From assembly GCA_965243025.1 (NCBI GenBank), contig CBDETY010000003.1, positions 3,040,001 through 3,104,000 of the forward strand: DNA of 64,000 bases, in the 5' to 3' direction. Shown here in pieces: positions 12,545-48,606 of the stretch. Below the pieces are notes generated by a model, which saw only the letters and a program-made list of their open reading frames with translations, was not told the DNA's origin and ran no database searches. The stretch is from Candidatus Latescibacterota bacterium (GTDB lineage: Bacteria; Latescibacterota; UBA2968; UBA8231). Positions within the stretch are counted from its first letter, which is position 1; every line of letters starts with the position of its first letter. Made by a program: the position numbers and the translations under genes.

Positions 12545-12546
12545 CC

Positions 12547-14958: not shown

Positions 14959-14981
14959 TTCTTCAGGCAAAGGAGATAGCC

Positions 14982-17354: not shown

Positions 17355-17391
17355 CCAGACTCAATCACACCATAGACGTAGGAGATTGAAG

Positions 17392-18039
17392 ATGCTGCGA
17401 ATTAATCTGCTCGTTGCCCTCCGCACCCTGCTGCGGCACAAGAGAAAGTATCATCAACCTGTTCCGGGCTGAGCATCGGAGTCGCCTGCTGCACGCTGGT
17501 CTACCTGTACGTCGATCACGAGTTGCGCCACGACGCCGTTCAACGAGAAGGGTGAACGGATCTACAGGCTTCTGCTCGAAGACGGAGCGAAGGGATAACC
17601 GAAAAAATTATCTTTAAATGGAACAAGGTTTGTCGGCGGGGCACCGACGAAAAAACAGCCCACCCGGAAGAAACTTGGTGATGGAATCCCAAGGGGGATC
17701 ATTCCTTCCTCTGTCCCGGTGGCCTTCCGACCCCGGGTGCCAGTTTGTCCTGCTTCTGGTGTCATCCGCAAGGTCCTCGGGCAACCACCGGCAGCGTGTT
17801 GATGATGATGTTGCGCAAGTTCGGATGGCTCGTGGTGCCCCCGCCAACGCCATCGCTTGGCCCGTCGCATTCTTCGTCCTCACCGCTGGCTCGCCTTCTA
17901 CGCCTACCGCATCGATCAAAGCCCGGAATGGTTCGCGCCGGCCGGCGTCGGGGTCCTCGCAGTCGCCCTGGCCGCTGTCACCGGGCAGACCTGGCTGGCG
18001 GCGCGGACCAACCCGGCAGACGCTCTCAGGTACGAGTGG
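17392..18039 (+). pseudogene. Collapsed permease pseudogene (5' and 3' fragments only)
   Basis: 17392-17590 frameshifted MLRINLLVALRTLLRHK..IINL.GLSIGVACCTLVYLYVDHE; 17762-18039 frameshifted copy of the 3' end of 6846..9224 and 9316..11727. Confidence 0.85.
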
Positions 18040-18688
18040 TGCTCAGGATCATGATCTGGTATTCTTCAAAGAAGGGAGGCTTGCGAAAGCCTCCCGTTCC
18101 CATCTGATCTACTGGTGCCAGAAAAGCAGCGATGGGGGGCGGGAATCTTTCGTGGGATGGCAGCTTGTAGCCAACCGGTTCCTGAAAAACGAGGACGGCA
18201 TGGACTTGGAGAACACGGGGGCATCACTCGGTCATGGGACAATTCCTTCGGGTTTTGGAGCAAAGGGGGTTTGCCCCGATCTCACATGGGAAGACCTGCA
18301 CAGTTGTCATTCGGAGGACCGGAACTGTCAGGCTGAAGGGGGGAGATGAAACGGCAAGATTGCCCCGAACTCCCGTTACTCCTTCACATGGGAAGAAGTG
18401 GCGCAAGAATAGGCCCCTGAGGACGGGAAATCCGCAGCCTGCACGCGATTTCGTCCAGTCCTAACCAATTGCGGAACTTCCAGGAGCAGATGATTCAGAT
18501 AGATTTCCTGCTTCAGGAGCTGCATGGGCAAGGTCGGCTGGCACCGCTCTCATCGAGGGCGACGAAGCGAGCATTCGGAAGCTACTTGGCGAGTTGGCCG
18601 GGCAGGAGGGATCGTCAAATTAGGAACTCCCTATGTTCTCTTAAGGCGACATGAAGGACTTGATCGGTAAGGGCTCCTTGGCACAGGC

Positions 18689-19197: not shown

Positions 19198-20286
19198 CTA
19201 GTGTTGTGTCGCAGAGATTCGCTCACAAAGTCTCTTGATTTTCGCGAGGATGGAATCGGCCGTAGCCGTCCAGACGAAAGGGCGTGCGTTGGCGTTCCAT
19301 TTGGCGGTGTAGCGTTCGATCCGCTCGATGAGCTCTGATACCTTACGGAACGAGTCCCGGCGAAGAGCTTGGCGGGTAATGACGCTGAACCAGATCTCGA
19401 CTTGGTTGAGCCACGAAGCATACGTGGGGGTGTAGTGAACGTGAAATCGAGGACGCCGTGCCAGCCATCGCTTGACCTTGGCATGCTTATGCGTGGCTTA
19501 GTTGTCGACGACCAGATGAATATCGAGGTCAGCCGGGACGTTGGCTTCAATGTGGCGCAGGAACTGGAGGAACTCCTGGTGACGATGACGAGACTTGCAC
19601 TGGGTCATCACGGCGCCGGTGGCGATGTCCAGTGCGGCGAACAGGGTGGTGGTGCCATGCCGCTTGTAGTCGTGCGTTACCCCTTCCACGTATCCCAGTC
19701 CCAGGGGCAGCATGGGCTGACTTCGTTCCAACGCCTGGATCTGGCTCTTCTCGTCCACGCGCAGCACCATGGCGTGCTCGGGGGGATTCAGGTATAAGCC
19801 GACGATATCCCGTACTTTGTCGACAAAGAAAGGATCGGTGGAAAGCTTGAAGTGCTTGTGTCGGTGGGGCTGCAAACCATACGTGCGCCAAATGCGATGA
19901 ACGCCATCCTTGGTCAGGCCGGTTTCCTCGCCCATGGAGCGCAGCGACCACTGGGTTTGGTCTTTGGGCTGGGTCTTCAGGGTCTTGTATACCACCTCGG
20001 CTACCTGCTCGTCCGTGATCGATCGCGGCGCCCCTGAGCGCAGCTCATCATACAAGCCTTGGAGCCCGTTTTCGAGAAAGCGCCGGCGCCACTTGCCGAC
20101 CGTAGCACGCGTCACACCCACCGCGGCCGCGACGGCTTCATTGGGCCAGCCTTCGGCGGCCAGCAGTATAATCTCGGCTCGCCGCACCAACCCGTGGGGA
20201 AGGCTCCGTGATTTGGCCATCGATTCCAATCGTTCCCGGTCCGACGGACTCAGCTCTAACGGCGTTAATGGACGCCCCGTCACCAT
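19198..20286 (-). pseudogene. IS630 transposase with in-frame stop
   Basis: HTH plus DEKSQIQAL...VVDN, then TAA at 19498; same frame continues ATHKH...ASWLNQVEIWF to TAG at 19198. Confidence 0.88.
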
Positions 20287-20368
20287 AGGTCTCTCCTTTC
20301 AGAAAAGGGGATAAGAGAAACCTACGGCACCTTCAATTGTTTGTACAGTTATTTAGACGACAGGGCAC
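19201..20368 (-). mobile_element. IS630-family element
   Basis: Imperfect terminal IRs (GTGTTGTGTCG / GTGCCCTGTCG); duplicated TA in a CTAG target (19199-19200, 20369-20370). Confidence 0.9.
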
Positions 20369-20424
20369 TAGAGGGATTGTGCGGAATGACTTGGGATTCA
20401 GGAAGGCTGCGGAGGCGGACGGTG

Positions 20425-20500
20425 ACATCGCAGCCCCGCGGGCGCCTTGGCCTTTGGCAACTAGCGGGACGGGTTCGCACACTGAGTAAAAACGTTATAA
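20425..20500 (+). repeat. attC-like site (same family, opposite orientation)
   Basis: GCGCCTTGGCCTTTGGCAAC...CGGGTTCGC...AACGTTATAA is the reverse complement of the minus-array consensus. Confidence 0.7.
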
Positions 20501-21292: not shown

Positions 21293-21383
21293 CTATAACA
21301 GGACGAGTCGCGCCGTTGCGTCGATTGGCGCCTCGGCCCTCAGGATACTGCCGTGCAGGTCCACAACCCCTGAAACCTTAAGT
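21293..21383 (+). repeat. Degenerate attC-like site
   Basis: CTATAAC...GGCGCCTCGGCC...; right core decayed to CTT. Confidence 0.5.
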
Positions 21384-21451
21384 GAAATTGGGGCATGACG
21401 GAAGTATCCATGACCCAATCCATGACATTTGGGAGGAATCAAGTCATAGCG

Positions 21452-21539
21452 GGCAGCGTTTAGCGTTCGCGCGCCTTTTTGGCAGCTTTGTTTTTGGGCA
21501 ACCCGGAACGCGGGTTCGACAATCCGGGAATCGCTAGAC
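21452..21539 (+). repeat. Degenerate attC-like site
   Basis: Contains GGCAACCCG-GAACG-CGGGTTCG hairpin; right core GCTAGAC. Confidence 0.45.
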
Positions 21540-22928: not shown

Positions 22929-23022
22929 ACGTAACGTCTCACCGATTGCCGAACTCGCCGAAGACGATCCCAAAGGCCAAAGGTCGGCGCCGCCAGCCGT
23001 AGCGGAAAACGAGTTGTAATGG
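22929..23022 (-). repeat. attC-like site (one core decayed to GTA)
   Basis: Aligns along its length with 31311-31406. Confidence 0.75.
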
Positions 23023-23033
23023 GACGTGCAGAT

Positions 23034-23732
23034 TCATTGTCGTCCCGTGGACGTCCCAATAAGAAAATCCGAGGCGGCAAGCCACTGCTCTGCGACTGTA
23101 CGAAGGTCGCCTCCTGGTATCGCGACCCTCGCTGGAATCTCCTGGAGCACCGCGCGCAGCTCTCCACCCCGCTGACGAAGCAAACTCATATCGGTTTGCC
23201 CCCGTAGCACAGATTTTACTTCCGAGTACGCAAAGTGCATCGCCGTGCCTATGCGGTGTTCTAAGGACCAGTCCATTTCATTCTCTCGACGAAGCCGAGA
23301 AACCAGTAGTCTTTCTGGAGGATACTCCCCAACCGACAGGTATCCTGGTTTGCATTCTGCCAGCGTGCCAAATCTGGCAACGTCCTCACCACGCTCGAAC
23401 GGGCAAAGATCCATGAGGTTCAGATCCACTTTGTGAAACACTGACTCGTTACGAAGAACCGTTCCAAGCATGCATGCCGACGTCGCGGTGGACATGAGCA
23501 TCCCGTGGTAGCGAAAAGGACGATAAGAGTTCAACGCACCCACCACATTCCAGCAGCAGCCAGGAAATCCAGAGACTACGAGAAGAAGGTCGATGTCCGA
23601 CCAACGATCCTCTTCGCCCCTAGCCTCCGAACCGAACGTGTAGCAACGCTCAACGACTGGAAGGGTCCCAAGGAAATCACACAGGTCCTTCGCCAGTGTC
23701 CGCCTTGCAGCCATTCCAGGTTGAGTCAACAT
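23034..23732 (-). CDS. Nucleotidyltransferase-domain protein (cassette gene)
   Basis: YTFGSEARG...SDIDLLLV pol-beta NTase motif. Confidence 0.8.
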   Translation of the reverse strand: MLTQPGMAARRTLAKDLCDFLGTLPVVERCYTFGSEARGEEDRWSDIDLLLVVSGFPGCCWNVVGALNSYRPFRYHGMLMSTATSACMLGTVLRNESVFHKVDLNLMDLCPFERGEDVARFGTLAECKPGYLSVGEYPPERLLVSRLRRENEMDWSLEHRIGTAMHFAYSEVKSVLRGQTDMSLLRQRGGELRAVLQEIPARVAIPGGDLRTVAEQWLAASDFLIGTSTGRQ

Positions 23733-23777
23733 CCCGTTCCTTTGGGGGAATCTTGATCTTACACCCTACCTACATTG

Positions 23778-23861
23778 CTCAAACGTTTCGCCGTGCCCGA
23801 ACCGCGAATGCGGTTGCCCGAAGGCGCGCCTGCGCCAAAGCCGGGCACGGACGTGTTAGGC
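23778..23861 (-). repeat. attC-like site
   Basis: Plus strand: AAC-6nt-CCGTGCCCG...CGGGCACGG-4nt-GTTAGGC. Confidence 0.85.
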
Positions 23862-23867
23862 GAAGAC

Positions 23868-24668
23868 TTACACTTCAGCCAGAATTACCATTCCCACAGG
23901 AAGTCGAGGCACGTCACCCTCACTGTCGACATTATCCCAACCAGCCAATTCTTCAAGTCGGCGAATGACAAATCCCGCATCAGCGATGGCGTTAACGACC
24001 TCCGCGAGGGGATGAAAGAATTCGACAATTTCTCGCTCCCCTTTCCAGCCACCGTGTTTGTCAGCGAGTGGAGTGCCGTCGAAACGGTAATACCCAGGTG
24101 ACGTGTTGAAGTAATCTCGTTCGACCGAAAAGACGCCATCCCTCTCCGACAAGCATTCCAAGACTGGATTGCCGTGGGTTAATACCAATCGTCCCGTTGG
24201 CTTGAGGACCCTGTGCCAATTGCGACAACACAAGAATAGATCCTCGAACCAGCAGATGTACGTTGCAACGACGATATCCAGGCTACCGTCAGGTATCGGC
24301 AACAAAGTCTGAGCATCGGCTTCGACAAATGTGACATTCGATCCGATCTTGGCCGCATTTTCCTTTGCAATGCGGATCGCTACTGGGCTGATGTCGCAGG
24401 CCGTAACGTGGGCACCGAGATTCCCCCAGGAGAAAGCCTGTTTCGCATCTCCCGCGCAACAGGTATCTAGCAGGTGCGCCCCGGAAACGTCACCAGCCAA
24501 TTGGACTACTGCTGCGTCGAGGGTGACTGCCCCCTCAGCATAGTGCTTATGGAAGTTCGGCACCTCTTTGAGGTTGAAATCCATGTAGGCTTCTTGGTAT
24601 TCGTCCCAAGCTTCTCTCAGCATCTTGTTATGGATGGCTTGTTTATCTGGCTGGTTCATATTTGACAT
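23868..24668 (-). CDS. Class I SAM-dependent methyltransferase (cassette gene)
   Basis: LLDTCCAGD, VTACDIS, EADAQ, LKPTG motifs. Confidence 0.85.
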   Translation of the reverse strand: MSNMNQPDKQAIHNKMLREAWDEYQEAYMDFNLKEVPNFHKHYAEGAVTLDAAVVQLAGDVSGAHLLDTCCAGDAKQAFSWGNLGAHVTACDISPVAIRIAKENAAKIGSNVTFVEADAQTLLPIPDGSLDIVVATYICWFEDLFLCCRNWHRVLKPTGRLVLTHGNPVLECLSERDGVFSVERDYFNTSPGYYRFDGTPLADKHGGWKGEREIVEFFHPLAEVVNAIADAGFVIRRLEELAGWDNVDSEGDVPRLPVGMVILAEV

Positions 24669-24695
24669 TTCCCCACAACCGGAAATCGAGTTTTC

Positions 24696-24779
24696 GCCTA
24701 ACGGACAAGGGCTTGCGATGGGCGGACCCGCGTGTGCGCGGTGTATAGTTGAGAAGGGTCCTCAAGCCCGGAGTTGGTG
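24696..24779 (-). repeat. attC-like site
   Basis: AAC-6nt-GGGCTTGCG...CTCAAGCCC-3nt-GTTGGTGGCC. Confidence 0.75.
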
Positions 24780-24794
24780 GCCGTGCTCCCCTCC

Positions 24795-25271
24795 CTACTC
24801 CCGCTCCACGAAATATTTCTTAAATCCGTGACTCGTCCCATCTTGCATTCCAAGGCGTTTGTAGAATCCCACCTGATCTTCGTTTGGACCGCTGAGTAAC
24901 TGTAACTTGTAGCAGCCCTTCTCTTCGGCAAGGTTAATCGCAAATGTCATCAGTTTTTTCCCAAATCCTTTGCCTCTTTGTTCGCGTGCAACAACGACGT
25001 TCTCGATGATAGCCCAAGGGCGCCCTTCGTAAGTAAAATTCGGAACGATTGCCATTATGAGAGTGGCCACTATTTCCTTATCCGACTCGCCCACAACAAT
25101 GAAAATGTTGCCGTAGTCAGACATCTCATCGAAGATCCGAATTGACTCTTCGAGTCCGAGAGTCTTGGCCGAAAGACTATGGGGGCGGCTCGTGATCTGA
25201 GGAAAGAGATTTAGCAGCGATTCGACGTCTAACCTGGTCGCAACTCGGCAAGAAATGTCTGAATGATTCAT
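24795..25271 (-). CDS. GNAT acetyltransferase (cassette gene)
   Basis: IENVVVAREQRGKGFGKKL, FYKRLG. Confidence 0.9.
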   Translation of the reverse strand: MNHSDISCRVATRLDVESLLNLFPQITSRPHSLSAKTLGLEESIRIFDEMSDYGNIFIVVGESDKEIVATLIMAIVPNFTYEGRPWAIIENVVVAREQRGKGFGKKLMTFAINLAEEKGCYKLQLLSGPNEDQVGFYKRLGMQDGTSHGFKKYFVERE

Positions 25272-25300
25272 CCGGTGGCCTTTCTCGACTTCGGCATGGC

Positions 25301-25368
25301 CATTAACGTTTTACCGGTTGCGGAAGCCCAAGGTGCGCCAGCACCGCAGCGCAAACGTGTTGTTAGAC
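25301..25368 (-). repeat. attC-like site (short, first hairpin absent)
   Basis: AAC-7nt-CGGTTGCG...CGCAAACG-4nt-GTTAGAC. Confidence 0.8.
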
Positions 25369-25376
25369 GCTGCTTC

Positions 25377-25694
25377 TCACAGCTCTACTTCCTCGCAAGC
25401 CCACTCCTGCTCAAATGTCATTAACTCATTCCAACGTTCAAGAATGGGTTCATATTGGCGATACCAGTCAGCGTAATCCTCCGAATTCGTCGTCTCCTCC
25501 CAAGTGTGACGACTCGACCAATACTGCAACGCGAGATAAAATCGAGTATCAGCGATGCGAAGCAGACCGAGCCGCAGACAACCTGGGAGTTTCTTGAAGT
25601 GTGGAACGATCTCCCCACTGACAAGACTTTCAAGCTCCCCTTGCTCCGCACCATCTCGCAATGACCACCGCTTAAACGTTATGAAGTTTGACAT
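25377..25694 (-). CDS. Dimeric alpha/beta-barrel (ABM-like) protein (cassette gene)
   Basis: KLPGCL...YLALQYWSSR pattern; bounded by sites. Confidence 0.65.
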   Translation of the reverse strand: MSNFITFKRWSLRDGAEQGELESLVSGEIVPHFKKLPGCLRLGLLRIADTRFYLALQYWSSRHTWEETTNSEDYADWYRQYEPILERWNELMTFEQEWACEEVEL

Positions 25695-25704
25695 ATGAAA
25701 TTTT

Positions 25705-25796
25705 GTTTAACGTTCCGGGCGGCCTGCGAACCCGCGCAGCGGGTTGCCGGAGGCCAAGGCGCGATCAGCGCCGCAGCGCAAACCGCGGCGTTACCC
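25705..25796 (-). repeat. attC-like site
   Basis: AAC-7nt-stem-AACCCGC GCA GCGGGTT-GCC GGA GGC-CAA-GGCGC...GCGCC-GCAG-stem-GTTACCC. Confidence 0.88.
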
Positions 25797-25869
25797 GATG
25801 TATCAAACCACTGGACGCACCTGCGCTACTTCACTCACTCTTGAGGAACGGCACGAATTGCATCATCTA

Positions 25870-27025
25870 GTGCTCTGTTAAAGAGTCGGCATTGAATTTT
25901 GGACCTTCACCAACTTGGCATCGTCCCGGTTTCGATGTCGCCATACGAGGTATTCCTGCATGCGTTGGCCGACGTCTCGATGGTCCCTTGGGTCGCTGTT
26001 CTTGATGACGAAGTAATGGGCCGCCGTCAGATGGCATTCGAGACGATTCATCCAGGAGGCGTTGGTCGCGGTGAAGACCAAAAAGACCTGATTTCGCTGA
26101 CACCATCGCCGGATCTTGTCGGTCGTGTGCGTCGACAGGTTGTCGAGGACGAGGTAGATGCGTTTGGCTTTGCGGTAGCGGCGCCGGATGGCCTTCAGGA
26201 AGGTGAGCACCACCGAGGCGTGCTTCTTCGGCTTGTGATGCATCCACAGGTGATCCTCGTGGACGTTGTAGGCGCCGAAGAAGTAGCTGACGCCGGCGTG
26301 CCGGGAGTAGGTGGCCCGGTGCCGCACCGGGTGTTTCTGCGGCGCCCACGAAGAGCCGGCATGGGGCTTGATCTGCACCGGCCCCATCTCGTCGAAGCAG
26401 ACTACGACCGCGTCCTTCGGCGGGCGCCGGTAGAGGCGGTCGATGCGTTTTTTTTCGAGGAGAAATCCGGATCCTTCGACTCCTTCCAGGTGCGGGTCCG
26501 CTGGTAGGTGATCTTATGCCGGTCCAGGACCTTGGCGATGGTCACGTGCGAGACCTTGGGGATCATCTGGCGCCCCACCAGACAGTCGGTCAGCTTGCGC
26601 AGCGACCAGTGATTGAAGGGTTCGCCGAAAGCTCGAGGGGGCATCTTGGCGATCTCCACCACCACGGACTCGTCTTCGGGCGTCAGCGTCGGGGGGCGCC
26701 CCGGATGGGCTCGGGTGCGCAGCGAGGCCAGCCCTTCCTCGTTGTATTGCCGCAGCAGTTGGCGCACGTATTCTTCGTGCAGATGCAGGGTCGACGACAG
26801 TTCCTGGACCCGCATACCCTGGGCACTGAGGGAGATCAACTGCCCTCGGCGCATCTGCACGGCATGGCGCGGCCGCTTCAGCCATCGGCTCAGTTCCCTG
26901 GATTCGGCCGCATTCGGTGTTCGAGCATGGAGACACATGGCAGGACCTCCCCGTAAGAATCGACGTATGTCCCCATGATACCAAGGCTTACGAGAAAGTA
27001 CAAGCCCCAATCCTTAACGGAGCAC
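25870..27025 (-). mobile_element. IS630-family element
   Basis: IRs GTGCTCTGTTAAAGA / GTGCTCCGTTAAGGA; TA duplication in CTAG. Confidence 0.92.
25878..26938 (-). CDS. IS630 transposase in two ORFs, probably joined by a -1 frameshift at A8 (26448-26455)
   Basis: HTH ORF (WSLRKL) then CFDEMGP...VLDNLSTH...ASWMNRLE DDE domain. Confidence 0.85.
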
Positions 27026-27174
27026 TAGCTGGCGCGACAATGGCGATAAATCGACACCAGACTTCGGATCAATCACTGCAATCGTGTAATCAACTGTGGT
27101 ATCAGGGTAAACCTGTGGAGTTGACCCGATTTCGTGGACACTTCATTTCTTGAAAGAAAGGAGGGTGTCCAACC

Positions 27175-27489
27175 ATGCCGAAATCCCATTCCCCTTATCC
27201 GCCCGAATTCCGGCAACAGATGGTGGAACTGGTACGGGCGGGTCGTAGTCCGGAGTCGCTGGCCAAGGAATTCGAGCCGTCCGGGCAGACGATCCGCAAC
27301 TGGGTGATCCAGGCCGAACGCGATGAGGGGGTGCGCCGCGACGGCCCCTCCCGTCCGGAGCAGGAGGAATTGCGGCGCCTTCGCCGTGAGAACAAGCAAC
27401 TGCGTATCGAACGGGAGATCCTGGCAAAAGCCACGGCCTGGTTCGCTCGCGAGGCCGACTCGGAGTCCGGCCCGTCTACGAGTTCATGA
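27175..27489 (+). CDS. IS3 transposase OrfA
   Basis: YPPEFR, HTH, leucine zipper ELRRLRRENKQLRIEREIL. Confidence 0.92.
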   Translation: MPKSHSPYPPEFRQQMVELVRAGRSPESLAKEFEPSGQTIRNWVIQAERDEGVRRDGPSRPEQEELRRLRRENKQLRIEREILAKATAWFAREADSESGPSTSS

Positions 27490-28370
27490 GAGCGCACCAG
27501 GCCGACTTTCCGGTGCTGACGATGTGCCGCGTGCTGAAGGTCTCCCCCAGCGGCTACTACGCCTGGTTGAAACGCCCGCCTTCGGGTCGCGCCCGGGCCG
27601 ATGCCGTGCTCAAGGCACGTGTCGAGCAGATCCACCAACACTCCCGGGGCACTTATGGAGCGCCGAGGATCCGGGCCGAACTGGCCGAGGAGGGCCAAGC
27701 CATCGGTCGCAAGCGCATCGCCCGATTGATGCTTGAGCTCGGGGTGCGCGGGGTATGCGCCCGCCGCCGCCTCTCCACCACCCGTCGCGGCCGGCAGGGC
27801 CGGGTCGCCTCCGACCTGGTCAAGCGGGTGTTTTCGGTCTCCGGCCCGAATCGCCTGTGGGTTGCCGATCTCACCTACATTCCCACGAGGTCGGGGTTTT
27901 TGTATCTGAGCGTGGTCATGGACGCCTGGAGCCGCCGAGTGGTGGGCTGGGCCATGGCGAACCATATGCGTACGCAGTTGGTGCTGGACGCCCTTGACAT
28001 GGCCCTGCACCGGCGCCGTCCCAAGAAAGTGATTCACCACTCCGACCACGGCAGTCAGTATACGGCCCTGGCCTTCGGGAAGCGCTGTCGCCAGGCCGGG
28101 GTACGTCCGTCGATGGGATCGGTCGGTGACTGCTTCGACAATGCTCTGTGCGAAAGCTTTTTCGCCACCTTGGAAAGGGAGCTGCTGGATCGTCATCGGT
28201 TTGCTACCCAGTCGCAAGCCCAGCGTACGGTTTTCGAATACCTGGAAGGCTGGTACAACCCCCATCGGCGGCACTCGGCCCTGGGACAACGATCTCCCAT
28301 CAACTACGAGAGGTATCATTTATCAAGGGGTATAAATCCAAACGGAAAACTGTCCGTGAAATCGGGGTAA
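27486..28370 (+). CDS. IS3 transposase OrfB (DDE)
   Basis: WVADLTY, HHSDHGSQY, DNALCESFFATLE. Confidence 0.94.
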   Translation: MRAHQADFPVLTMCRVLKVSPSGYYAWLKRPPSGRARADAVLKARVEQIHQHSRGTYGAPRIRAELAEEGQAIGRKRIARLMLELGVRGVCARRRLSTTRRGRQGRVASDLVKRVFSVSGPNRLWVADLTYIPTRSGFLYLSVVMDAWSRRVVGWAMANHMRTQLVLDALDMALHRRRPKKVIHHSDHGSQYTALAFGKRCRQAGVRPSMGSVGDCFDNALCESFFATLERELLDRHRFATQSQAQRTVFEYLEGWYNPHRRHSALGQRSPINYERYHLSRGINPNGKLSVKSG

Positions 28371-28631
28371 CCTCACCTGAACAATCTTGTAGTCGATGGA
28401 AGGGTTCGGCTCCACAACGCGGACTGAATACTTAGCACCCAACTCAGGAACATGCACGTGGCGCAATTGTTTCAAAGCGTCTTCGACCCTTCGAACCGAA
28501 GACGAGTCACCTTGAACGACCAGCGTTAGTGGCTCTTCGGCGGGTTCGTCGCAGCTAGCCTCCAGGAGTGCCCCTACTCCTGAACAGATAATCCAGAGTC
28601 GTCGTCGCATCATGTTCTGATCTCGCATTTC

Positions 28632-28720
28632 GGGTAACGTCCGACAATTCCCGACAGCCCGAAGGGCTGTGCCGAAGGACGAGCGGCGAATGGCGCGCCG
28701 TGGGAATTGCTTTGATATAT
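28632..28720 (-). repeat. attC-like site (GAT core)
   Basis: AAC-6nt-CAATTCCC...GGGAATTG-4nt-GATATAT. Confidence 0.82.
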
Positions 28721-28791
28721 GACGTGTACTCTCAGAGGCAATGGGGTCCTGTTGGTGCACAATTTGTAAGATATCTTCGTTGAAACGCGAG

Positions 28792-29505
28792 CTACTCCGG
28801 CAGTCTTCCAGCTAACCATTCAATGGCGTTGAGGGTCCATGTCTCGTTTGACGCGCCCGCGAACAGATCTGTGCGGGAGTCGTCGAGGCTGGAAATGTGG
28901 CCCCCCGAGGTCATGACAACGGCCTTGCCCGCGATCGCCCCGGGCGGTTCTATTGCTGCGGCAAAATCGCCGACATTAGGGTCTTCACTACGGCCCAGGA
29001 CTGTGACGGAAGAACCCCGTCCCAAGGTCATTGAGCAGGATGTCCGGATCTGTAAGCCGTGGGGACAATTTTGCGAAATCGGATGGGAAGGGACCAGCAC
29101 TATTCGTGGCGTTCTAACCCACTCCTCATGGAATGTTACGGGCAAGTCCAACGTGCGAGCGACTTGATTCTGCGGTTCAACGAACCCCTTGTGATTGGCC
29201 ATGAGGAATAGACCACCACCGCGCGTAAAGAAATCGGTGATGGCGGCCAATTCGCCGTCCGAGAACGGAATACTTTTTCTTCTCCCCGAGATCACCAGGA
29301 CTCCGGCCTCGCGTAGGGAAGCCGCTTCGAGATCCGTAGGATCCATAGTGTAGCCACGGGCAGTGAGAGCGGAGGCAAGTCCAACCAACCGCTGTCCTCG
29401 CCAAGCGTCCCCTCGGGGCGGTTCACTATAGTTTTCAGGTTCCGTACCTTGATGTCGAATAACCTGATGACTTTTCGAATCGAAAGCCACTTTTACCATA
29501 ACCAT
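28792..29505 (-). CDS. Hypothetical protein, class-I glutamine-amidotransferase-like/DUF4350-like (cassette gene)
   Basis: FSDGELAAITDFFTRGGGLFLMANH and LNAIEWL motifs. Confidence 0.6.
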   Translation of the reverse strand: MVMVKVAFDSKSHQVIRHQGTEPENYSEPPRGDAWRGQRLVGLASALTARGYTMDPTDLEAASLREAGVLVISGRRKSIPFSDGELAAITDFFTRGGGLFLMANHKGFVEPQNQVARTLDLPVTFHEEWVRTPRIVLVPSHPISQNCPHGLQIRTSCSMTLGRGSSVTVLGRSEDPNVGDFAAAIEPPGAIAGKAVVMTSGGHISSLDDSRTDLFAGASNETWTLNAIEWLAGRLPE

Positions 29506-29534
29506 GGTACTATTCCAGTCACCTTATCCATGTC

Positions 29535-29624
29535 ATATATCGCTTTCCGGTTGCCGAACCCGCGAAGCGGGTTGCCGAAGGCCAAGGCGCCCGAGGGCGG
29601 GGCAGCGGCCACAGGTTGTTACCG
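29535..29624 (-). repeat. attC-like site
   Basis: ATC core, AACCCGCGAAGCGGGTT-GCCGAAGGC-CAA, ends GTTACCG. Confidence 0.85.
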
Positions 29625-29640
29625 GATGTGAGATCTCAAC

Positions 29641-30384
29641 CTACCCGAACCCGTTGGTCCGTATCCATTCGATTGACGACGAGATGCCCTCGTCAAGAGT
29701 TTCCAAGCACCACACAGCTTCCGGCGCATACTCCAGAAGAGCACTACACACCTCACCAATAGGGATAGTCCCTTGATCAAGAGCGAGGTGCTCGTCGGGC
29801 TCTCCGTGATTGTTGTGCATGTGAACCCACCCGATTCTGGGTCCAAGTCGTTCGACCCACGCTATCGGAGTCTCACGAGAGTTGCAATGGCAGTCCCCAA
29901 TATCGAGGCATACGTCCACTCGAGGATCATTGATTGCGTCGATCACTTCAGCTAGCAGGACGGCATCCCATCCGAGCATGTTCTCAACATGGTAGCGAAC
30001 AGAGGGTTCCTTGCACTCAAGGAAGTCATGCCAGAACGCCACACATCGAGACAACCAATTCTGCGGGGCGCTGGTGCCTGGGACGTATCCGTGGTGTAGG
30101 ATGATGTCGAAGCAATCTAGTTCACGGGCGAAGCGGCACGCCAGTTCGAATCGATGCCGGGTCACCTCCCGGATCATGGGATCATAGCTTCCAGCGCACA
30201 GATCCCCGAAAGGTCCGTGGAGTGAACGTAGCTGAAGATCATCCAGAGGTCTTTGTAATGCTGCCACCCTCTCTGGCTCGAGGAAAGACTGGATCTCGAT
30301 CCCATATCCATGTTGACGACAGACAGCGGCGTACTGGAGATCATCGACCGCAACCATAATGCGATGGGGTTTGTAACTCGTCAT
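29641..30384 (-). CDS. Sugar-phosphate isomerase/epimerase (xylose-isomerase-like TIM barrel; cassette gene)
   Basis: SLHGPF, HVEN, CLDIG, VHMHNNHG, DEHL, CLE; start reassigned to ATG 30384 inside the cassette boundary. Confidence 0.85.
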   Translation of the reverse strand: MTSYKPHRIMVAVDDLQYAAVCRQHGYGIEIQSFLEPERVAALQRPLDDLQLRSLHGPFGDLCAGSYDPMIREVTRHRFELACRFARELDCFDIILHHGYVPGTSAPQNWLSRCVAFWHDFLECKEPSVRYHVENMLGWDAVLLAEVIDAINDPRVDVCLDIGDCHCNSRETPIAWVERLGPRIGWVHMHNNHGEPDEHLALDQGTIPIGEVCSALLEYAPEAVWCLETLDEGISSSIEWIRTNGFG

Positions 30385-30404
30385 CACTTCGCAAATCTCC
30401 TTTC

Positions 30405-30488
30405 CGGTAACGTTCTCGCCGTGCCAGAACCGCGAAGGGGTTGGGCGAAGGCACCTCAGCGCCGAAGCCGGGCACGGACGTGTTATAT
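30405..30488 (-). repeat. attC-like site
   Basis: AAC-7nt-CCGTGCCAG...CGGGCACGG-4nt-GTTATAT. Confidence 0.87.
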
Positions 30489-30514
30489 GCAGTGCCGCAA
30501 GCGCTGACAACACT

Positions 30515-31255
30515 TCACGGACCCTGTGCCTGGTAGACCCCAATTATTCGGTCAATACTCTTGGTATGAAGGCGCTCATGCCATACCAGGCGACGCAAAA
30601 CCTTCCCCACAGACCAGCCGCCGTGAGCATCTAAGAGATGAATTCGCGAAAGGTCTTGTTCTGCCTTCAACTTCTGTAATGCCTCGATTGTCACGTTTCG
30701 ATGTTTTAATAAGTTATGCTGCCACGGACCCTTACTGTCAGCGGGCGAAACGGTAGGACGGATACCAATGTTTGGCAAGTAATAGTGAGTTTCTACGTTT
30801 GCGATGTGCACAAGAATCTGTCGGATTGTTCGCCAGTTCGCCCAAGTTGAAAAACGGCGATAGGGCGGATTCCAATCTAAGGCGTTGTCCGACAACTCAG
30901 CGACCTGCCTCAGAAGGTCTGTGCGTGTGGCATGAAGTAAATCGATTGTCTCATCAATCAATGAAGGTGTTACCGGCTGGTAATCCCAGTCGAACAGTAT
31001 CTCGTTTCCGCTGACCTGTTCGGCAACCTCCACTTTGGGTAGCTCTAACCCCACTCGGCACGGCACGCCACACCTTTCGCGAAACCGAATGTACTCCAGC
31101 AGTCTGTCGGGGACCTTTGCAAGGACTTCGTTTTCGGTCTCTCTCCATGTAGCAAAGCCGAGATAAGATGGAATCCAGGCATGGTATCCCGCTTCCCCAT
31201 CTTCGTCGAAAGCTCTGTGGAGGTAAACTTTTGAACTCGCTCTCGGCTCAAGCAC
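30515..31255 (-). CDS. DinB-family protein with HicB-like N-terminus (cassette gene)
   Basis: TIRQILVHIANVE and WSVGKVLRRLVWHERLH DinB histidines; N-terminal AWIPSYLGFATWRETENE. Confidence 0.72.
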   Translation of the reverse strand: MLEPRASSKVYLHRAFDEDGEAGYHAWIPSYLGFATWRETENEVLAKVPDRLLEYIRFRERCGVPCRVGLELPKVEVAEQVSGNEILFDWDYQPVTPSLIDETIDLLHATRTDLLRQVAELSDNALDWNPPYRRFSTWANWRTIRQILVHIANVETHYYLPNIGIRPTVSPADSKGPWQHNLLKHRNVTIEALQKLKAEQDLSRIHLLDAHGGWSVGKVLRRLVWHERLHTKSIDRIIGVYQAQGP

Positions 31256-31310
31256 TCTGATCCTGGACCTTTCTGTGCCTCATTGCATGTCCTCTCTCAG
31301 TCCGCATTGC

Positions 31311-31406
31311 ATATAACGTCTCACCGATTACCGAACTCGCCGAAGGCGAGTTGCCGACAGGCCAAGGTTGGAGAAGCCAGCCGCAGCGGTAAACGAGTGG
31401 TTAGTG
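31311..31406 (-). repeat. attC-like site
   Basis: AAC-7nt-CGATTACCG...CGGTAAACG-4nt-GTTAGTG. Confidence 0.88.
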
Positions 31407-31469
31407 GATGTGCGATTCTCTCCAAGAACAGCCGGTATGAGGAGAAAAACTCTCAGTCTCTCAGGACAC

Positions 31470-31910
31470 TCAGACAGACGAACGAACAGGTCTTGATGCC
31501 CAGCCTAGGGTTCCAACGCCACCGATGGTTGCCGCGGTTCCAACCACCATCCCCACGATGGTCCCTCCGCCGCATTCCTCGACGCCCAACTCCATTAGTC
31601 TCCAATACTGGTAGAGAGTCCCGACGAAGACCGGAAGCATCCCGATTGCGATTGCTGTCAACCGCTGCCCCACACTGAACTCCTTCAGAAAGCGCCTACC
31701 CAAATTGTACCATACAAAAAGCGTCCCGGCACCGAAGATCGCGAAGACAGCTAGCATTACCAGTCCGAATGGAACTCCCTCGACCGGATTGTTGAGAAGG
31801 GCGTAAAAGACGCCTATGAACAGCGCCATCATGCTGACCGCAGTGGCCAGGAGCGCGACCCCAGCCCCCCCGGGACTACCAAGCAGATCAAGAAAGCGTC
31901 GAATACTCAT
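31470..31910 (-). CDS. Hypothetical 4-TM membrane protein (cassette gene)
   Basis: Four hydrophobic segments; bounded by sites. Confidence 0.75.
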   Translation of the reverse strand: MSIRRFLDLLGSPGGAGVALLATAVSMMALFIGVFYALLNNPVEGVPFGLVMLAVFAIFGAGTLFVWYNLGRRFLKEFSVGQRLTAIAIGMLPVFVGTLYQYWRLMELGVEECGGGTIVGMVVGTAATIGGVGTLGWASRPVRSSV

Positions 31911-31957
31911 TCCGCATCCACCTCAAGGCTCAAGGTTCCCTAATTCTATCGCATTTC

Positions 31958-32046
31958 CACTAACGTTTTGACAGGACTCCGAACCGGCGTCAGCCGGTTG
32001 GGTCGGGGTTGTCGGGACGGGAGCCGCGCAGCCTGGCTTGTTATAC
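31958..32046 (-). repeat. attC-like site
   Basis: AAC-7nt-CAGG...AACCGGC GTCA GCCGGTT...CCTG-4nt-GTTATAC. Confidence 0.82.
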
Positions 32047-32095
32047 GCCGGGCGTGACGGGGTGGAAGGGTGTCGGGGGGATTTGCCCACGAGAG

Positions 32096-32611
32096 CTACT
32101 CGCTTAGGTCGACCCAGTATCTCTTGTACTTAGTTCTTGTGTCTACATCCCGAAGTTCGTCTTCCAGGATTCCCCCGTTTGCTTCGATCACCCTGATAGA
32201 TGCACCGTTAACTGAGTCCGTCGTTACAAGTACCCTTGTGACTCGCATGTCCTTTGCTTCGCGCAGAGCTGCCGCCAGCATGGCCTTCCCGTATCCTTTA
32301 CCTCTCGCAGATGGCTTGACGTAGTAGCCGATGTGTCCGCCTTTATGCTTGAGCTCGGGTGTCAAGGAGTGCCGCAGTCGACACATCCCGACGGGACTGC
32401 CGTCGTCGTCCAAGAACCAGTAAGTGGACTGCGCCACCAATCCTGGCCTCAGTCCTTTCCCTTCAGCGGAATCAACGAGACGCTGCAGGTACTCGCCCAG
32501 TTCCCCTTTGACATAGTCCGTTCCTCCGAACCCGCTTTCTCCGTTGCCAACCTCCTCGAGGAACGCATCAAGGCCTTTGGGTGGGTTCGGGGAGGCTTTG
32601 ACTAGCTTCAT
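32096..32611 (-). CDS. GNAT acetyltransferase (cassette gene)
   Basis: GGHIGYYVKPSARGKGYG, NGASIRVIEANGG. Confidence 0.9.
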   Translation of the reverse strand: MKLVKASPNPPKGLDAFLEEVGNGESGFGGTDYVKGELGEYLQRLVDSAEGKGLRPGLVAQSTYWFLDDDGSPVGMCRLRHSLTPELKHKGGHIGYYVKPSARGKGYGKAMLAAALREAKDMRVTRVLVTTDSVNGASIRVIEANGGILEDELRDVDTRTKYKRYWVDLSE

Positions 32612-32640
32612 CAGACTCTTTCCTCATCCTCACGCCTGGC

Positions 32641-32729
32641 GTATAACATTATGCCGGTTTGCGAACCCGCGAAGCGGGTTCCGGAGGCCAAGGCGCGAAT
32701 GCGCCGCAGCGCAAAACGTGCTGATATAT
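32641..32729 (-). repeat. attC-like site (GAT core)
   Basis: AAC-7nt-CGGTTTGCG-three hairpins-CGCAAAACG-4nt-GATATAT. Confidence 0.88.
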
Positions 32730-32765: not shown

Positions 32766-33362
32766 TTAAGGAACGCAAAACCACCATTGAGGGGACGAAG
32801 CAACAATTTCTGCCATCTTGGAATAGCCAATACTTCTCGGATGAGACCCGTCATTTTCGGAGACCTCCCGCGTATAAGCCTCATCCCAACAGAGGGCAGA
32901 AAAGAGATCGATGTACGGAACATTGAGCGATTGAGCCTCTATGGTGAAGGCACGCGAGAGTTCCTCAACTCTGTCATTTTGTTCGTCATCGAGTACGGGC
33001 GGAGGCCCCACCACCAACACATTATACCTTTTGGCTTCTTTCAGCATTGATCTGACGTTTGTGCAGGAATCCTCTGGCTCTACACGCACCCTTCCATTCT
33101 CTATTGCCGTATCGTTTACGCCACATGAGATAACCACCCTACCATCGCAGAAATCAGGCAGCCGTAAGACGCATTCGCTCTCCCAACGAAGTAGGATGTC
33201 GCTGCTCGTGTCTCGACGAATTCCAAGGTTGTAGTAGGTGACGGGCGTACCACTGGTGCTTGCTCTGGCACACAATCGCCCTGCCCAGCCAAGGGCATCC
33301 TCATCACCGGTACCATTGACGAACGAGTCACCAATAAAGCAAATCCTGATATCCTGGGTCAC
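32766..33362 (-). CDS. SGNH/GDSL hydrolase (first cassette)
   Basis: IGDSF, NLGIRRD, GVND, DGSHP blocks. Confidence 0.92.
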   Translation of the reverse strand: MTQDIRICFIGDSFVNGTGDEDALGWAGRLCARASTSGTPVTYYNLGIRRDTSSDILLRWESECVLRLPDFCDGRVVISCGVNDTAIENGRVRVEPEDSCTNVRSMLKEAKRYNVLVVGPPPVLDDEQNDRVEELSRAFTIEAQSLNVPYIDLFSALCWDEAYTREVSENDGSHPRSIGYSKMAEIVASSPQWWFCVP

Positions 33363-33405
33363 GCGTGTTCAATCCCCTAAAGTCCAATGTCATATATCTG
33401 ATTAC

Positions 33406-33426
33406 ACCCGAACATTTGGTTAGGGT
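33406..33426 (-). other. attI-like recombination simple site at array head
   Basis: Minus strand ACCCTAAC-CAAAT-GTTCGGGT: 8-bp inverted arms and a 5-bp spacer, like attI1 CCCTAAA-ACAAA-GTT. Confidence 0.5.
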
Positions 33427-34210
33427 AATGCACCACAGGGTGTTATTTATCTGAAACGATAGTACGTTCCGGGGTGAACCCTCGCAACTTTTCCCCGCTC
33501 GGGGATTTTCCCTAACCCGTTGCGATTGAGACACATAGCCCGTTCTCCGATCCCTGATGGGGACTGACACGGTTTCTCTTACGGCAGGGGCTAACCCGTG
33601 CCTTTGAAGCCGTCATGGGTGTTCGGAGCATCATCTTGACCAGCCCGACGACGAGGGCGCAAGCTTGGACCGGGTCGAATCCGAGTTTTCCTTGGGGAGG
33701 GGGACGCCAAGAAAGCGCCGAAGTCCTACATGGGCTACTGCCAGAGATTCCTTCTGTGGAAACGGCTCCTCGACCGGGGAGTGAACGGCTCCGCCTTCAA
33801 CAGCGCAGCGTTCTAAGCTTCTCTACGGAGAGTCTGAAAACAGCCCGTCCCCTTGGAGGGACTGCGCATGCATTCGCTTCCAGTTCTTGCCGTCCCTGAT
33901 CTTAGAGGGGAGTCTCCGAGGAGGATTACCCGGCATTTGAGCAGGCGGTGGTCGAAGAGTGCCTCGCGGGATTCCGGCGCGGAGGAGGAGTTTCTCGGCG
34001 ATTTCACCGAAACCTGAGAACCTACCGAATCGATGGGAACACCCTGCCGGTCACCACCCTGGCAAACGGCGAGGTCGGCACCAATAAACTGATTGCCCCA
34101 TCATTCGTCCACGGCCATCGCCCGAACCACTTGGAGTATCCTGAAGGCGGCGCATTTTATGCCGGAATAAAACAGGCATCAAGAAGGCAAGGCCATCAGA
34201 TGATGAAGTG

Positions 34211-40545: not shown

Positions 40546-40811
40546 AAATTCTCCTTTCCTGACGCGTCATTAAACGCGCACTGATTATCCTCGTTATTCC
40601 GGCTCGTTGGGTATGCGATATGACTGATTCAATCTCGACAGGCCAAAAGTAAGGTAACGTTCTTCATCCAATGAAAACGTCCCGCCCTGGCTGCAGCGGG
40701 AACTGCGCGAGCTGACCCAGCAGCTCGGGTTGCTCGAGGGGGTTTGAAGGAGAGGGGGCCACTGTTTTTGGGGACCCGCTGGCAATAACCTTCTCCGATC
40801 CCGACCACTCA
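40533..40811. pseudogene. BrnT toxin remnant split by a micro-inversion
   Basis: Plus strand ~40750-40811 ATVFWDPLAITFSDPDHS; minus strand from 40674 down SLDEERYLTFGLSRLN...IISAR. Confidence 0.75.
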
Positions 40812-41648
40812 GTGGACCACCGGTGAATCGAACAGGCCCTTCCAGTGCAGGATGTGCTTGCACACGGAGAAGGCGTAGGGATCCGGGGTGCAGTAGGCGA
40901 TCATGGGCAGCATGCGGTGGTAGAACAGGTGCCGGGCTTCGTCCCACGCGCCGGCCTGCACCAGCCGGTGCAGTTCCACCTCGCGATCAGGCATGACGGC
41001 GGCGCTGCCGGCAACCACGCCGTCGGCGCCGGAGACGTAGGCGGGCAGCGAGAAGGCGTCCCAGCCGCAGATGCAGGTCGCTTGCGGGGCGGCGTCCTTG
41101 AGGCGGTCGAAGGAGTACACGTTGCCGCTCACCTTGACGGTCGTGATCCGCTCGATGGCGTCTACCAGGGGCAGCACTTCGCGGTCCACGTCGAGGGTGC
41201 CCTCGTTGGTCTGGTCGTAGAGCATCACGGGGATCCGTTCGGCGATCTGGCTGAAGAAGCCGTGCAGGTCCGTCCTGGTCAGCTTCCTAGTCATGGCGAA
41301 GTCGGCGCCGCACCGGGCCGCGAGCTCCGCGGCGGGCAGGCCGCGGTCTTCCTCGACGCTGATGATGCCCATACCCACGGGAACGCGGCCGTTCACGTGC
41401 TCCAGCACCGTGGTCAGGACCTCCTCGATCTCCTCGAGACTCTGCCCCTCGAACTCCCCCGCCTTGCCGCAGGCGACCACCGCCGACACCCCCGGCTCCA
41501 GAACGAAGTCGATCTGGCGGCGCATGCTGGCGGGGTCGAAGCGGGTTCCGTCGTCGCTGAACGGGGTGAACAGAAGTGCCACCACCCCCTTGATCACCTC
41601 GCCGCTGTCGACGGTGCGTAGCTCTGTAATATCCGTGTTCGCTGTCAT
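40809..41648 (-). pseudogene. DapA/NanA-family aldolase, C-terminus displaced by inversion
   Basis: LFTPF, CGKAGE, MLYD, TVKVS motifs; probable tail ENVPPWLQRELRELTQQLGLLEGV* lies on the plus strand at 40673-40747. Confidence 0.8.
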
Positions 41649-41707
41649 TCCTTCGATCTCTTCCCGGCCATCGCCGCGAATCCGGAACGGTGTCCCAAAG
41701 CGCCCCG

Positions 41708-42163
41708 TTACTGCCCCACCCCTGCGCCCGCGGCAGGCTGCTGCCGCGCAGCACACCGGAACAACAAGGCGGAGCCGACGGCTGAAACCGCGCTCAGCGA
41801 GGTCGTGGAACCGATTATCGCCAGAACCAGAAACCACAGCGGATGTTCGGATGTCATTGTCCCGAAAACAAACGGAAGCACTCCCAGCACCAGACCAGCC
41901 ACCGCCCCCCAGGCGGCGAGTCGGCGAAGCGGCAACTCGCTGAATCGGCGGCCGGTCTCTGCAAGCCGGAGCACTGCGAAAAAGATCACGCCGCCGACGA
42001 AGCCGGGCGTCGCCAGCGCAATCCAGGGATCGAGGACGGATTCCTCCGGAATGCCCAGGAAGCCGCTGATTATCCCTATCAGCGCACCCAGAAGCCCCCA
42101 TCCGGCTGCCCAGGCCAGCCCCATCCCGACAGCGCCGCCGATGCGTCCAAGCCACTCTTTCAT
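41708..42163 (-). CDS. Hypothetical 4-TM membrane protein
   Basis: MKEWLGRIGGAVGMGLAWA...; AGGTAGA upstream of ATG. Confidence 0.75.
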   Translation of the reverse strand: MKEWLGRIGGAVGMGLAWAAGWGLLGALIGIISGFLGIPEESVLDPWIALATPGFVGGVIFFAVLRLAETGRRFSELPLRRLAAWGAVAGLVLGVLPFVFGTMTSEHPLWFLVLAIIGSTTSLSAVSAVGSALLFRCAARQQPAAGAGVGQ

Positions 42164-42294
42164 TTCTACCTGCTTTATAGGGATAGGGTTCCCCGGCAGT
42201 GAGGCGAAAGCCCGGGGGGATCTTCCTGAATCATGATTGGGCCAAACGCCCCGGGGCCCGAACAACAAGCAACGTCCGCTACAGACGCCTCATT

Positions 42295-44979: not shown

Positions 44980-45033
44980 GGGTAGACTCCTTCGCTTTTG
45001 CGCAGCTCCACGATTCCTGTGTCGACAACGATG

Positions 45034-48582: not shown

Positions 48583-48606
48583 AGGGAAGCGCTCGCGAAC
48601 GCACTT

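Follow-up and report, generated by a model that had tools for sequence, protein, structure and literature searches.

Organization of the Cassette Array

The region described here belongs to the genome of a Candidatus Latescibacterota bacterium (contig CBDETY010000003.1), of which a stretch of 64,000 nucleotides (positions 3,040,001 to 3,104,000), further referred to as the window, was analyzed. The mapping of genes and sites in the window reveals a chromosomal platform at 22.9–33.9 kb, built of an attI-like region, the stump of an integrase gene, and ten cassettes. It is likely an integron-like platform with recombination sites of a distinct shape, whose cognate integrase is the nearest relative of the integron integrase IntI and lacks the IntI-specific insertion (further called the insertion-less integrase). 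Within the array region (22.9–33.4 kb), every sizeable gene is located on the minus strand, and each minus-strand cassette gene has one attC-like site on its 3′ side. The sites are read on the plus (bottom) strand as nnnTAAC ... GTTAnnn. An earlier reading of the letters, here called the original prediction, had listed twelve of them in the window, and all twelve are present.

The boxes of neighboring sites are related to each other. Going towards higher coordinates, there are 11 junctions at which the 7-mer on the GTT side of one site can be compared with the 7-mer on the AAC side of the following one. Eight of them show exact reverse complementarity, and the remaining three match in 6/7, 5/7, and 3/7 letters. 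Both the AAC and the GTT box are present in 9 of the 12 window sites, the exceptions being ATC, GAT, GTA, and AAG. The unorthodox boxes are also complementary: GATATAT at 28714–28720 to ATATATC at 29535–29541, and GATATAT at 32723–32729 to ATATATC at 33401–33407. Such complementarity is the signature of integron cassettes, in which the cassette begins inside one box and ends with its own site; the box comparison in the window shows that the far box of a cassette's own site pairs with the cassette start. There is no site in the window between 33401 and the first cassette gene, and the last gene does have one, which places the crossover as in integrons.

Further sites were sought with a covariance model, R1, built from 26 sites, all of them from Latescibacterota and 7 from the window. 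R1 recovers 11 of the 12 originally predicted window sites (E-values from 1e-23 to 2e-4; site 24696 is missed). In the 6.8-Mb genome, R1 finds 28 matches at E ≤ 0.01, of which 24 fall in two arrays next to integrase remnants (11 in the window and 13 in the second array, at 4.101–4.119 Mb) and 4 elsewhere. The window gave no match to any Rfam family.

The spacers between the boxes and the stem were determined by an exhaustive search for the best helix next to the AAC and GTT boxes, and are given as the number of nucleotides in the AAC arm and in the GTT arm. For 11 of the 12 sites the search returned the spacer of the original prediction, and for the remaining one (29535) the result is ambiguous. 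All cassette genes listed below are on the minus strand and all of their sites on the plus strand.

The first cassette carries a GDSL lipase gene (32766–33362) and site 32641–32729, with a 7/4 spacer, a G.A mismatch, and an R1 score of 85.2 bits. It is followed by a GNAT acetyltransferase gene (32096–32611) with site 31958–32046, which forms a 7/4 structure with only 4 contiguous bp and a weak stem (22.9 bits), both of its boxes being exactly complementary to those of the neighbors. A gene without family (31470–31910) is accompanied by site 31311–31406 (7/4, an A.A mismatch at stem position 3; 65.4 bits), and a DinB-like gene (30515–31255) by site 30405–30488 (7/4; 64.6 bits). The gene of a xylose-isomerase-like TIM barrel is listed at 29641–30543, with the true start probably below 30405; its site, 29535–29624, has ATATATC as the AAC-side box and can be drawn as 8/5 with a mismatch or as 6/3 (45.8 bits). 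The next gene, with a weak DUF4350 match only (28792–29505), is linked to site 28632–28720, which has a 6/4 spacer, a perfect 8-bp stem, and the GTT-side box GATATAT (51 bits).

The following cassette (25797–28638; taken as 25725–28639 when compared with another genus) is split by two insertion sequences, and its own site is 25705–25796 (7/3, 2 mismatches). Beyond it are located an ABM monooxygenase-like gene (25377–25694) with a short site of 68 nt at 25301–25368 (7/4, a G.A mismatch at stem position 3; 42.9 bits), and a second GNAT acetyltransferase gene (24795–25271). The site of the latter, 24696–24779, belongs to a different sequence family, with a 6/3 spacer and a 7-bp stem, and gives no R1 match at E ≤ 1; the box on its AAC side and the one on the GTT side of site 23778 are exactly complementary. 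The array ends with a methyltransferase gene (23868–24668) and site 23778–23861 (6/4, a perfect 9-bp stem; 61.1 bits), and with a nucleotidyltransferase gene (23034–23732) and the last site, 22929–23022. This site is 7/4 only through the alignment to site 31311, has GTA as the GTT-side box and 2 stem mismatches, and scores 43.5 bits. The gene content is of the sort usual for chromosomal integrons.

Fold of the attC-like Sites

A textbook attC site contains the inverted boxes RYYYAAC ... GTTRRRY with 5–6 unpaired bases per arm; position 16 in L″ is extrahelical, and so is a second base 6 bp further on (PMC5027507). The textbook geometry quoted in the original prediction agrees with this source and with four class 1 cassette sites analyzed as a control, which show an arm asymmetry of 0 or −1 and a GTT-arm bulge in all four; in two of them, a 6/5 spacer and 3 bp precede the bulge. 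Sites beside canonical IntI in related genomes follow the order of a 3/2 spacer, 5–6 bp, a bulge at about position 16, and 4–6 bp.

The window sites differ from this pattern. Instead of 5–6 bases in each arm, they have 7/4, 6/4, 6/3, or 7/3 spacers, and the AAC arm of the bottom strand exceeds the GTT arm by about 3 nt. In the long stem, none of the 12 sites needs an internal bulge; at least one mismatch occurs in 7–8 of the 12 stems and perfect stems in 3–4, as the original prediction of mismatches rather than bulges implied. Across 23 loci, R1 collects 75 sites, and none in five arrays beside IntI, in a class 1 integron, or in an array of Terriglobia. The core boxes are retained in these sites, with T4, A5, A6, C7 and G, T, T, A found in 64–75 of the 75 aligned sequences. 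The extrahelical base of position 16 is absent, since the 9-bp stem of these sites contains no bulge; it often holds a purine–purine mismatch.

Pairing of the arms was considered in two alignments, A5 with 26 sites and A6 with 75 sites; the latter was fitted to the model and therefore leans towards the structure. In A5, both partners vary in 10 of the 11 stem pairs, and the observed score is not attained by any of 500 shuffles, which bears out the predicted covariation of the stems. In A6, 87.5% of the stem cells are paired. The spacer itself is also partly structured: positions 6–7 of the 7-nt spacer pair with positions 2–3 of the 4-nt spacer, forming a covarying helix of 2 bp. The first pair of this mini-helix in A5 is CG in 10, GC in 10, AU in 3, and other in 3 of 26 sites, and the second is CG in 11, GC in 9, UG in 1, and other in 3 of 24 sites, although the sequence families share descent and the independent changes are thus fewer than the cells. 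In the model-fitted A6, all four Watson–Crick types occur, with 82% and 75% of the cells paired.

The presence of a 2-bp helix inside the spacer makes possible a single unpaired GTT-arm base between the mini-helix and the long stem. Such a bulged base, which may be A, T, or C, is found in 58 of the 75 sites, the candidate being at about position 11. The original prediction that these sites have no extrahelical base thus holds for the long stem and fails for the spacer. On the AAC arm, the unpaired stretch amounts to 4–5 bases and is pyrimidine-rich. A wobble pair is conceivable between position 8, which is G in 73 of the 75 sites, and the base preceding GTT, a T in 70 of them. The best drawing of the site is the R helix, an AAC-arm bulge of 4–5 nt, 2 bp, usually one bulged GTT-arm base, and the 9-bp stem, followed by a three-way junction.

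The few canonical sites available are mutually similar, so that a covariance model made of them would measure sequence over shape. For this reason, a threading test was used instead, in which the base pairs formed out of 9 were counted on each template. On the 7/4-type template, the 75 sites form 7.35 pairs on average, with at least 7 pairs in 57 of them, and on the textbook template 3.65 pairs, with none reaching 7; as these sites were chosen by a 7/4-shaped model, the only independent result for them is that they do not fit the textbook template. The 14 canonical sites beside IntI behave in the opposite way, with a mean of 3.64 pairs and none reaching 7 on the 7/4-type template, and a mean of 7.71 and 11 sites with at least 7 pairs on the textbook one. 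This outcome supports the original prediction of a structurally distinct class of sites.

The difference in arm length up to the end of the stem can be measured irrespective of the way the spacer is drawn. A low threshold of the candidate filter admitted many false candidates, hence only scores of at least 7 were used. Beside insertion-less integrases, the mode of the difference is +3 (45 of 113 candidates, some of them false), and 75 of 113 are within +2 to +4; beside IntI, the mode is 0 (12 of 17 candidates). Of the two strands, the bottom one has the better fold in 66 of the 75 sites, with a mean of −1.36 kcal/mol. The same preference is reported for attC in PMC5027507.

The attI-like Region and the Integrase Gene

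On the plus strand, next to the first cassette, the attI-like region extends from 33401 to 33620 (right end approximate). It begins at the box ATATATC, after which an inverted repeat CCGAAC...GTT follows. The repeat has the form CCGAAC (4–5 nt) GTTxGG, in the window at 33410–33440 and in the second array of the same genome (L007, 4.10–4.12 Mb) at 1040–1075. In the attC-like sites, too, the 5′ stem arm nearly always terminates in the motif CGAAC (G26 and A27 in 74 of the 75), which may represent a second protein-binding box. At both attI-like junctions of the genome, the first cassette begins with a box of the ATATATC/GATATAT type (the window; L007 at about 190–200 and 1033–1040). Such boxes replace AAC/GTT in some cassettes, and their complementarity reaches 10 bp (GTCATATATC).

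The attI-like region is followed by the integrase-gene stump (33620–33871, plus strand, start approximate), which covers the first ~85–100 codons with indels and is recognized by DNA homology to the 5′ part of the gene in G002, a genome of the same genus. No protein-family match is left in the stump, and PF00589 has no match in the window, where no tyrosine-recombinase domain is found. An open reading frame (ORF) at 47287–48660, first suspected to be the integrase, was rejected as being without a family match. The whole segment 33384–33871 is homologous to the attI and 5′ integrase-gene region of L007, G001, and G002, with 74–78% identity. The integrase gene adjoins an attI-like site and an array in the window, in L007, L025 (G002), and L026 (G001), and in L028 with L023 (G004). 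In L007 it is an internally deleted frame of 193 aa, matching TIGR02249 positions 238–315, and the intact gene of G002 encodes 293 aa.

The protein of G002 has the integron integrase family TIGR02249 as its best match, with 224 bits in two stretches. Model positions 1–179 and 235–315 are matched and positions 180–234 are not. The scores of the insertion-less integrases, 224 and 240 bits, are both below the cut-off of 265. With the XerA-type model NF040815, the G002 protein scores 212 bits (cut-off 220), and with XerC/D models 171–175 bits (cut-offs 330–335). In an alignment with five canonical IntI of the same bacterial family, G002 and three relatives lack 31 + 10 columns, which hold the IntI-specific motif (the additional domain, I2 helix region). 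The catalytic residues R, K, HxxR, H, and Y are kept in the intact relatives G002, G016, and G015. The best match in the PDB is 2a3v (VchIntIA; IntI4), with 158 bits, compared to 127 bits for 4a8e and 92 bits for XerD; 18 query residues replace the chain residues 179–238 of 2a3v, leaving ~42 residues fewer, including the IntI-specific insertion. The divergent recombinase that the original prediction had foreseen is thus an IntI-like tyrosine recombinase without the IntI-specific insertion, as judged from the alignment, the PDB comparison, and the TIGR02249 match.

In a tree of these proteins, the eight IntI form one clade on a long branch (SH-aLRT, the Shimodaira–Hasegawa-like approximate likelihood ratio test, 99), placed among unresolved insertion-less relatives. 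The sampling of IntI is thin, and for this reason no direction of gain or loss of the insertion is claimed. The array-linked genes of Latescibacterota form a clade of their own (SH-aLRT 100), apart from a group linked to IS91-family transposases. The genome contains a separate Xer-like gene and no canonical IntI, the best TIGR02249 match being a stump of 95 bits.

Site Type and Integrase Type across Genomes

The relation between sites and integrases was followed in 41 related genomes, grouped by the type of integrase. Among the 13 genomes with the insertion-less type, 12 contain 12–89 R1 sites and one, G013, contains none; this genome is 84% complete, and its integrase gene lies at a contig end. 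The five genomes with only canonical IntI have no R1 site, and the 23 genomes with neither type have at most 9. The original prediction had proposed a search for a co-occurring recombinase and for its IntI-specific insertion in genomes of the Fibrobacterota–Chlorobiota–Bacteroidota (FCB) group. R1 sites follow the insertion-less type, in which the insertion is absent, and the setting agrees, as the family of the genome includes a metagenome-assembled genome (MAG) labelled Candidatus Latescibacterota, an FCB-group phylum.

Two genomes, G010 and G023, carry both canonical IntI and the insertion-less integrase. The stretch of G010 beside IntI has textbook sites and no R1 match, and an R1 site lies 1.4 kb beyond the insertion-less gene. 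Each integrase type of G010 stands beside its own kind of site, a natural control within one genome.

Among public sequences, the nearest named relative of the integrase comes from a MAG labelled Candidatus Latescibacterota, and relatives with 45–59% identity are found in Gemmatimonadota, Clostridia, Paenibacillus, and others. Clustering at 50% leaves 4108 representatives with E ≤ 1e-30; the best 150 of these 4108 all align residue for residue with the insertion-less query, mostly in a single stretch, with no room for the insert. An example of such a relative is Paenibacillus wulumuqiensis, in which at least 7 cassettes come after the integrase gene and read in the same direction. The sites are 4/7 on the coding strand, which corresponds to 7/4 on the bottom strand, and the box logic is exact in 4 of 6 junctions, with one mismatch in the other 2. 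R1 finds ten sites there, all on the predicted strand. The same pairing of site and integrase recurs in Paenibacillus and Clostridia.

The insertion-less family is not uniform, and a multi-copy subgroup is coupled to IS91-family transposases. In the Terriglobia MAG at L098 (9914–12034), the insertion-less gene is directly followed by an IS91-family transposase gene (Y2_Tnp, Zn_Tnp_IS91), and the element has 5 copies in that MAG. The sites of the neighboring array, with a 5/2 spacer and a position-16 bulge, represent a third geometry. This array was considered as a counter-example and set aside, its insertion-less gene having proved to be IS91-linked and multi-copy.

Interpretation and Alternative Explanations

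Taken together, the sites with their cassette logic and distinct geometry, the absence of the insertion from the integrase, and the way in which the sites co-occur with one integrase type make the integron-like platform with its own insertion-less integrase the favored reading. Under such a mechanism, the insertion-less integrase would excise and insert cassettes through the folded bottom strand, on which it would bind the R helix and the 9-bp stem. Like IntI, the enzyme would cleave at the C of AAC and exchange one strand with the attI-like site. Strand and register would be set by the large bulge on one side, next to the cleavage triplet, together with the small bulge opposite, and the asymmetry of arm lengths may in this way substitute for the extrahelical bases that I2 reads.

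A broader proposal goes beyond the window. Insertion-less relatives of IntI would run a second kind of integron, in which cassettes are captured and shuffled through folded single-stranded sites with a different structural code (an asymmetry of ~3 nt and a pyrimidine bulge next to the cleavage triplet, replacing the extrahelical bases recognized by I2), widespread outside Proteobacteria and possibly representing the state before I2. The groups meant are Latescibacterota, Gemmatimonadota, Paenibacillus, and Clostridia, including phyla held to be almost integron-free. This proposal is held with modest confidence, as being slightly more probable than its opposite.

Several points weigh against these readings. 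No recombination, excision product, or strand preference was observed. Contigs of four metagenome runs were compared with the array, and between-site contig joints were considered as evidence of excision and rejected, as they contain extra letters and lie inside look-alike sites; the similarity of the sites explains them. Array parts that these runs left uncovered were given no weight. Both copies of the integrase gene in the genome are broken. Because R1 derives from these very sites, the absence of matches in canonical arrays is in part an effect of sequence and not of shape. The arm-asymmetry counts draw on candidate lists that include false positives, the related genomes are not independent samples, and the tree comes from a quick search in which few IntI (8) were sampled and the outgroup, namely the other recombinases of the genome, is distant. 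Among 80 loci of named relatives, many of which are short contigs, only 10 have at least 3 asymmetric candidate sites, which in all cases lie to the same side of the gene. Finally, not every insertion-less relative serves an array, as seen from the Terriglobia copy beside the IS91-family transposase, and the insertion-less Terriglobia gene adjoins the L098 array (12264–18324), whose sites have the 5/2 spacer and the position-16 bulge.

One alternative is an ordinary integron with a lineage-specific flavor of attC, whose canonical IntI was lost or acts in trans, the insertion-less neighbor being irrelevant. The core boxes, the cassette logic, the divergent layout, and the better-folding bottom strand are all integron-like, and canonical IntI does occur in the same bacterial family, where G010 and G023 hold both types. 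This explanation is nevertheless improbable. The genome itself has no canonical IntI, its best TIGR02249 match being the 95-bit stump, and the remnants that adjoin the attI-like regions of both arrays are of the insertion-less type. Moreover, R1 sites are missing from the five IntI-only genomes and from the five arrays beside IntI, and those arrays show the textbook geometry.

Equally improbable is a dead relic (a CALIN, see below), in which an Xer-like or insertion-sequence-borne insertion-less gene merely lands beside arrays and has no role in cassette movement. The multi-copy, IS91-coupled subgroup, with one copy beside an array in the Terriglobia MAG, would suit this explanation, as would the two broken integrase copies of the genome. 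It does not account for the fixed position and orientation of the gene by the conserved attI-like region in G000 (twice), G001, and G002, nor for a gene that is single-copy beside arrays in several genera and co-occurs with one site type only. The array-linked genes of Latescibacterota are also separated in the tree from the IS91-linked group. That the repeats are intergenic palindromes (REP-like, i.e., repetitive extragenic palindromic, elements or terminators) rather than recombination sites would fit GC-rich hairpins 3′ of genes, yet is hardly credible given the exact complementarity of neighboring boxes in most junctions, the concentration of the genome-wide matches in two arrays with integrase remnants, and the recurrence of the same cassette with different neighbors in another genus.

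Both integrase copies are broken, insertion sequences have entered, and several sites are decayed (22929, 31958, and an inverted trio at 20.4–21.5 kb). The arrays of this genome are therefore probably inactive now, and frozen unless they are served in trans.

The I2 segment is held to be necessary for cassette capture and regarded as the innovation that opened single-strand recombination, with no known evolutionary intermediates (PMC7790495 and PMC4792948). Integrons are also reported as nearly absent from Firmicutes in the IntegronFinder 2.0 preprint. The cassette system described here pairs the nearest I2-less relatives of IntI with a site geometry of their own, and raises the questions of whether hairpin sites can be recombined without I2 and what then sets the strand choice. 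Searches keyed on the IntI-specific domain would call such arrays integrase-less or overlook them, and the traffic of gene cassettes in many phyla would then be underestimated. Full-text literature searches returned no paper on this geometry or on arrays of cassettes that depend on an integrase devoid of the additional domain; published attC sets (PMC8352920, IntegronFinder papers) may hold such sites.

Insertion Sequences and Neighboring Features

The cassette ending at site 25705 contains two insertion sequences on the minus strand. The first (25867–27028) carries DDE_3 and helix-turn-helix (HTH) ORFs and has 2 further copies in the genome, 98–99% identical. The second (27113–28376) has an ORF of 374 aa without a Pfam match and at least 7 further copies with 99.9–100% identity, which suggests recent transposition. 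The same cassette recurs without both elements in another genus (L028:10291–10783), where it has different neighbors. A third repeated element (20000–20372) ends at 20372 and has 6 near-identical copies.

The second GNAT cassette gene (as 24789–25309) is ~95% identical in sponge metagenome contigs of other studies, unlike its flanks, and the right-hand end of the likeness lies within 2 nt of the AAC box. At the similarity applied, the gene is not accompanied there by its own site, and no conclusion was drawn.

Outside the array, three weak, degenerate sites of the same type are matched by R1 on the minus strand (20420–20500, 21293–21383, and 21444–21539). They adjoin dehydrogenase-like and methyltransferase genes on the plus strand, and may be an inverted, decaying end of an array. 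On the other side, a lone plus-strand site at 46701–46793, 13 kb outside the array, has a 7/4 spacer and a degenerate AAC-side box (AAG). It lies 3′ of an ankyrin-repeat gene (46830–47216, minus strand). For the insertion of a single cassette at this locus no support was obtained, since no matching box was found on the upstream side of the ankyrin gene. In the stretch that separates the array from the lone site, the minus strand of 40809–46125 contains genes of a DHDPS-family enzyme, a PhyH dioxygenase, and an APH-family phosphotransferase, with no recombination sites separating them.

Comparison with Known Systems

The closest known systems are the sedentary chromosomal integrons, such as the Vibrio cholerae superintegron, together with the class 1 integrons. 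They share with the platform described here the divergent integrase gene, the promoterless cassette array, and the site 3′ of each gene, as well as the RYYYAAC/GTTRRRY boxes, the crossover in the box nearest to the next cassette, and the better-folding bottom strand. The cassette content (GNAT, methyltransferase, DinB, and the like) is also typical. The differences concern the integrase, which lacks the IntI-specific insertion and remains below the TIGR02249 cut-off, and the site, in which the 7/4 spacer (4–5 unpaired bases, 2 bp, and a 1-nt bulge) replaces the 5–6/5–6 arrangement, the position-16 bulge is absent, and the two arms differ by 3 nt, the AAC arm being the longer one.

The lack of an intact integrase within reach of the array resembles CALIN, a term of IntegronFinder for clusters of attC sites without an integron integrase. 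Unlike in CALIN, the array here has kept the attI-like region and the stump of its cognate integrase gene, and relatives carry the intact gene.

In the ‘inverted’ integrons of the Treponema type, the integrase gene reads in the same direction as the cassettes, and the Treponema integrases carry the IntI insertion by the definition used in the field. A co-directional arrangement of the insertion-less gene and the cassettes exists in Paenibacillus and several Clostridia, whereas the window and its close relatives have the classical divergent layout.

The Xer recombinases (XerC/D and archaeal XerA), known also from single-stranded phage integration at dif, share with the insertion-less integrase the fold, the length class, and the absence of the I2 segment. 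The match to IntI is, however, better than that to Xer, both in family models (224–240 bits with TIGR02249 against 171–175 with XerC/D) and in structures (158 bits with 2a3v against 92 with XerD). The two broken copies imply that the gene is dispensable in this genome, unlike the essential Xer, and its place is beside cassette arrays and not at a dif site.

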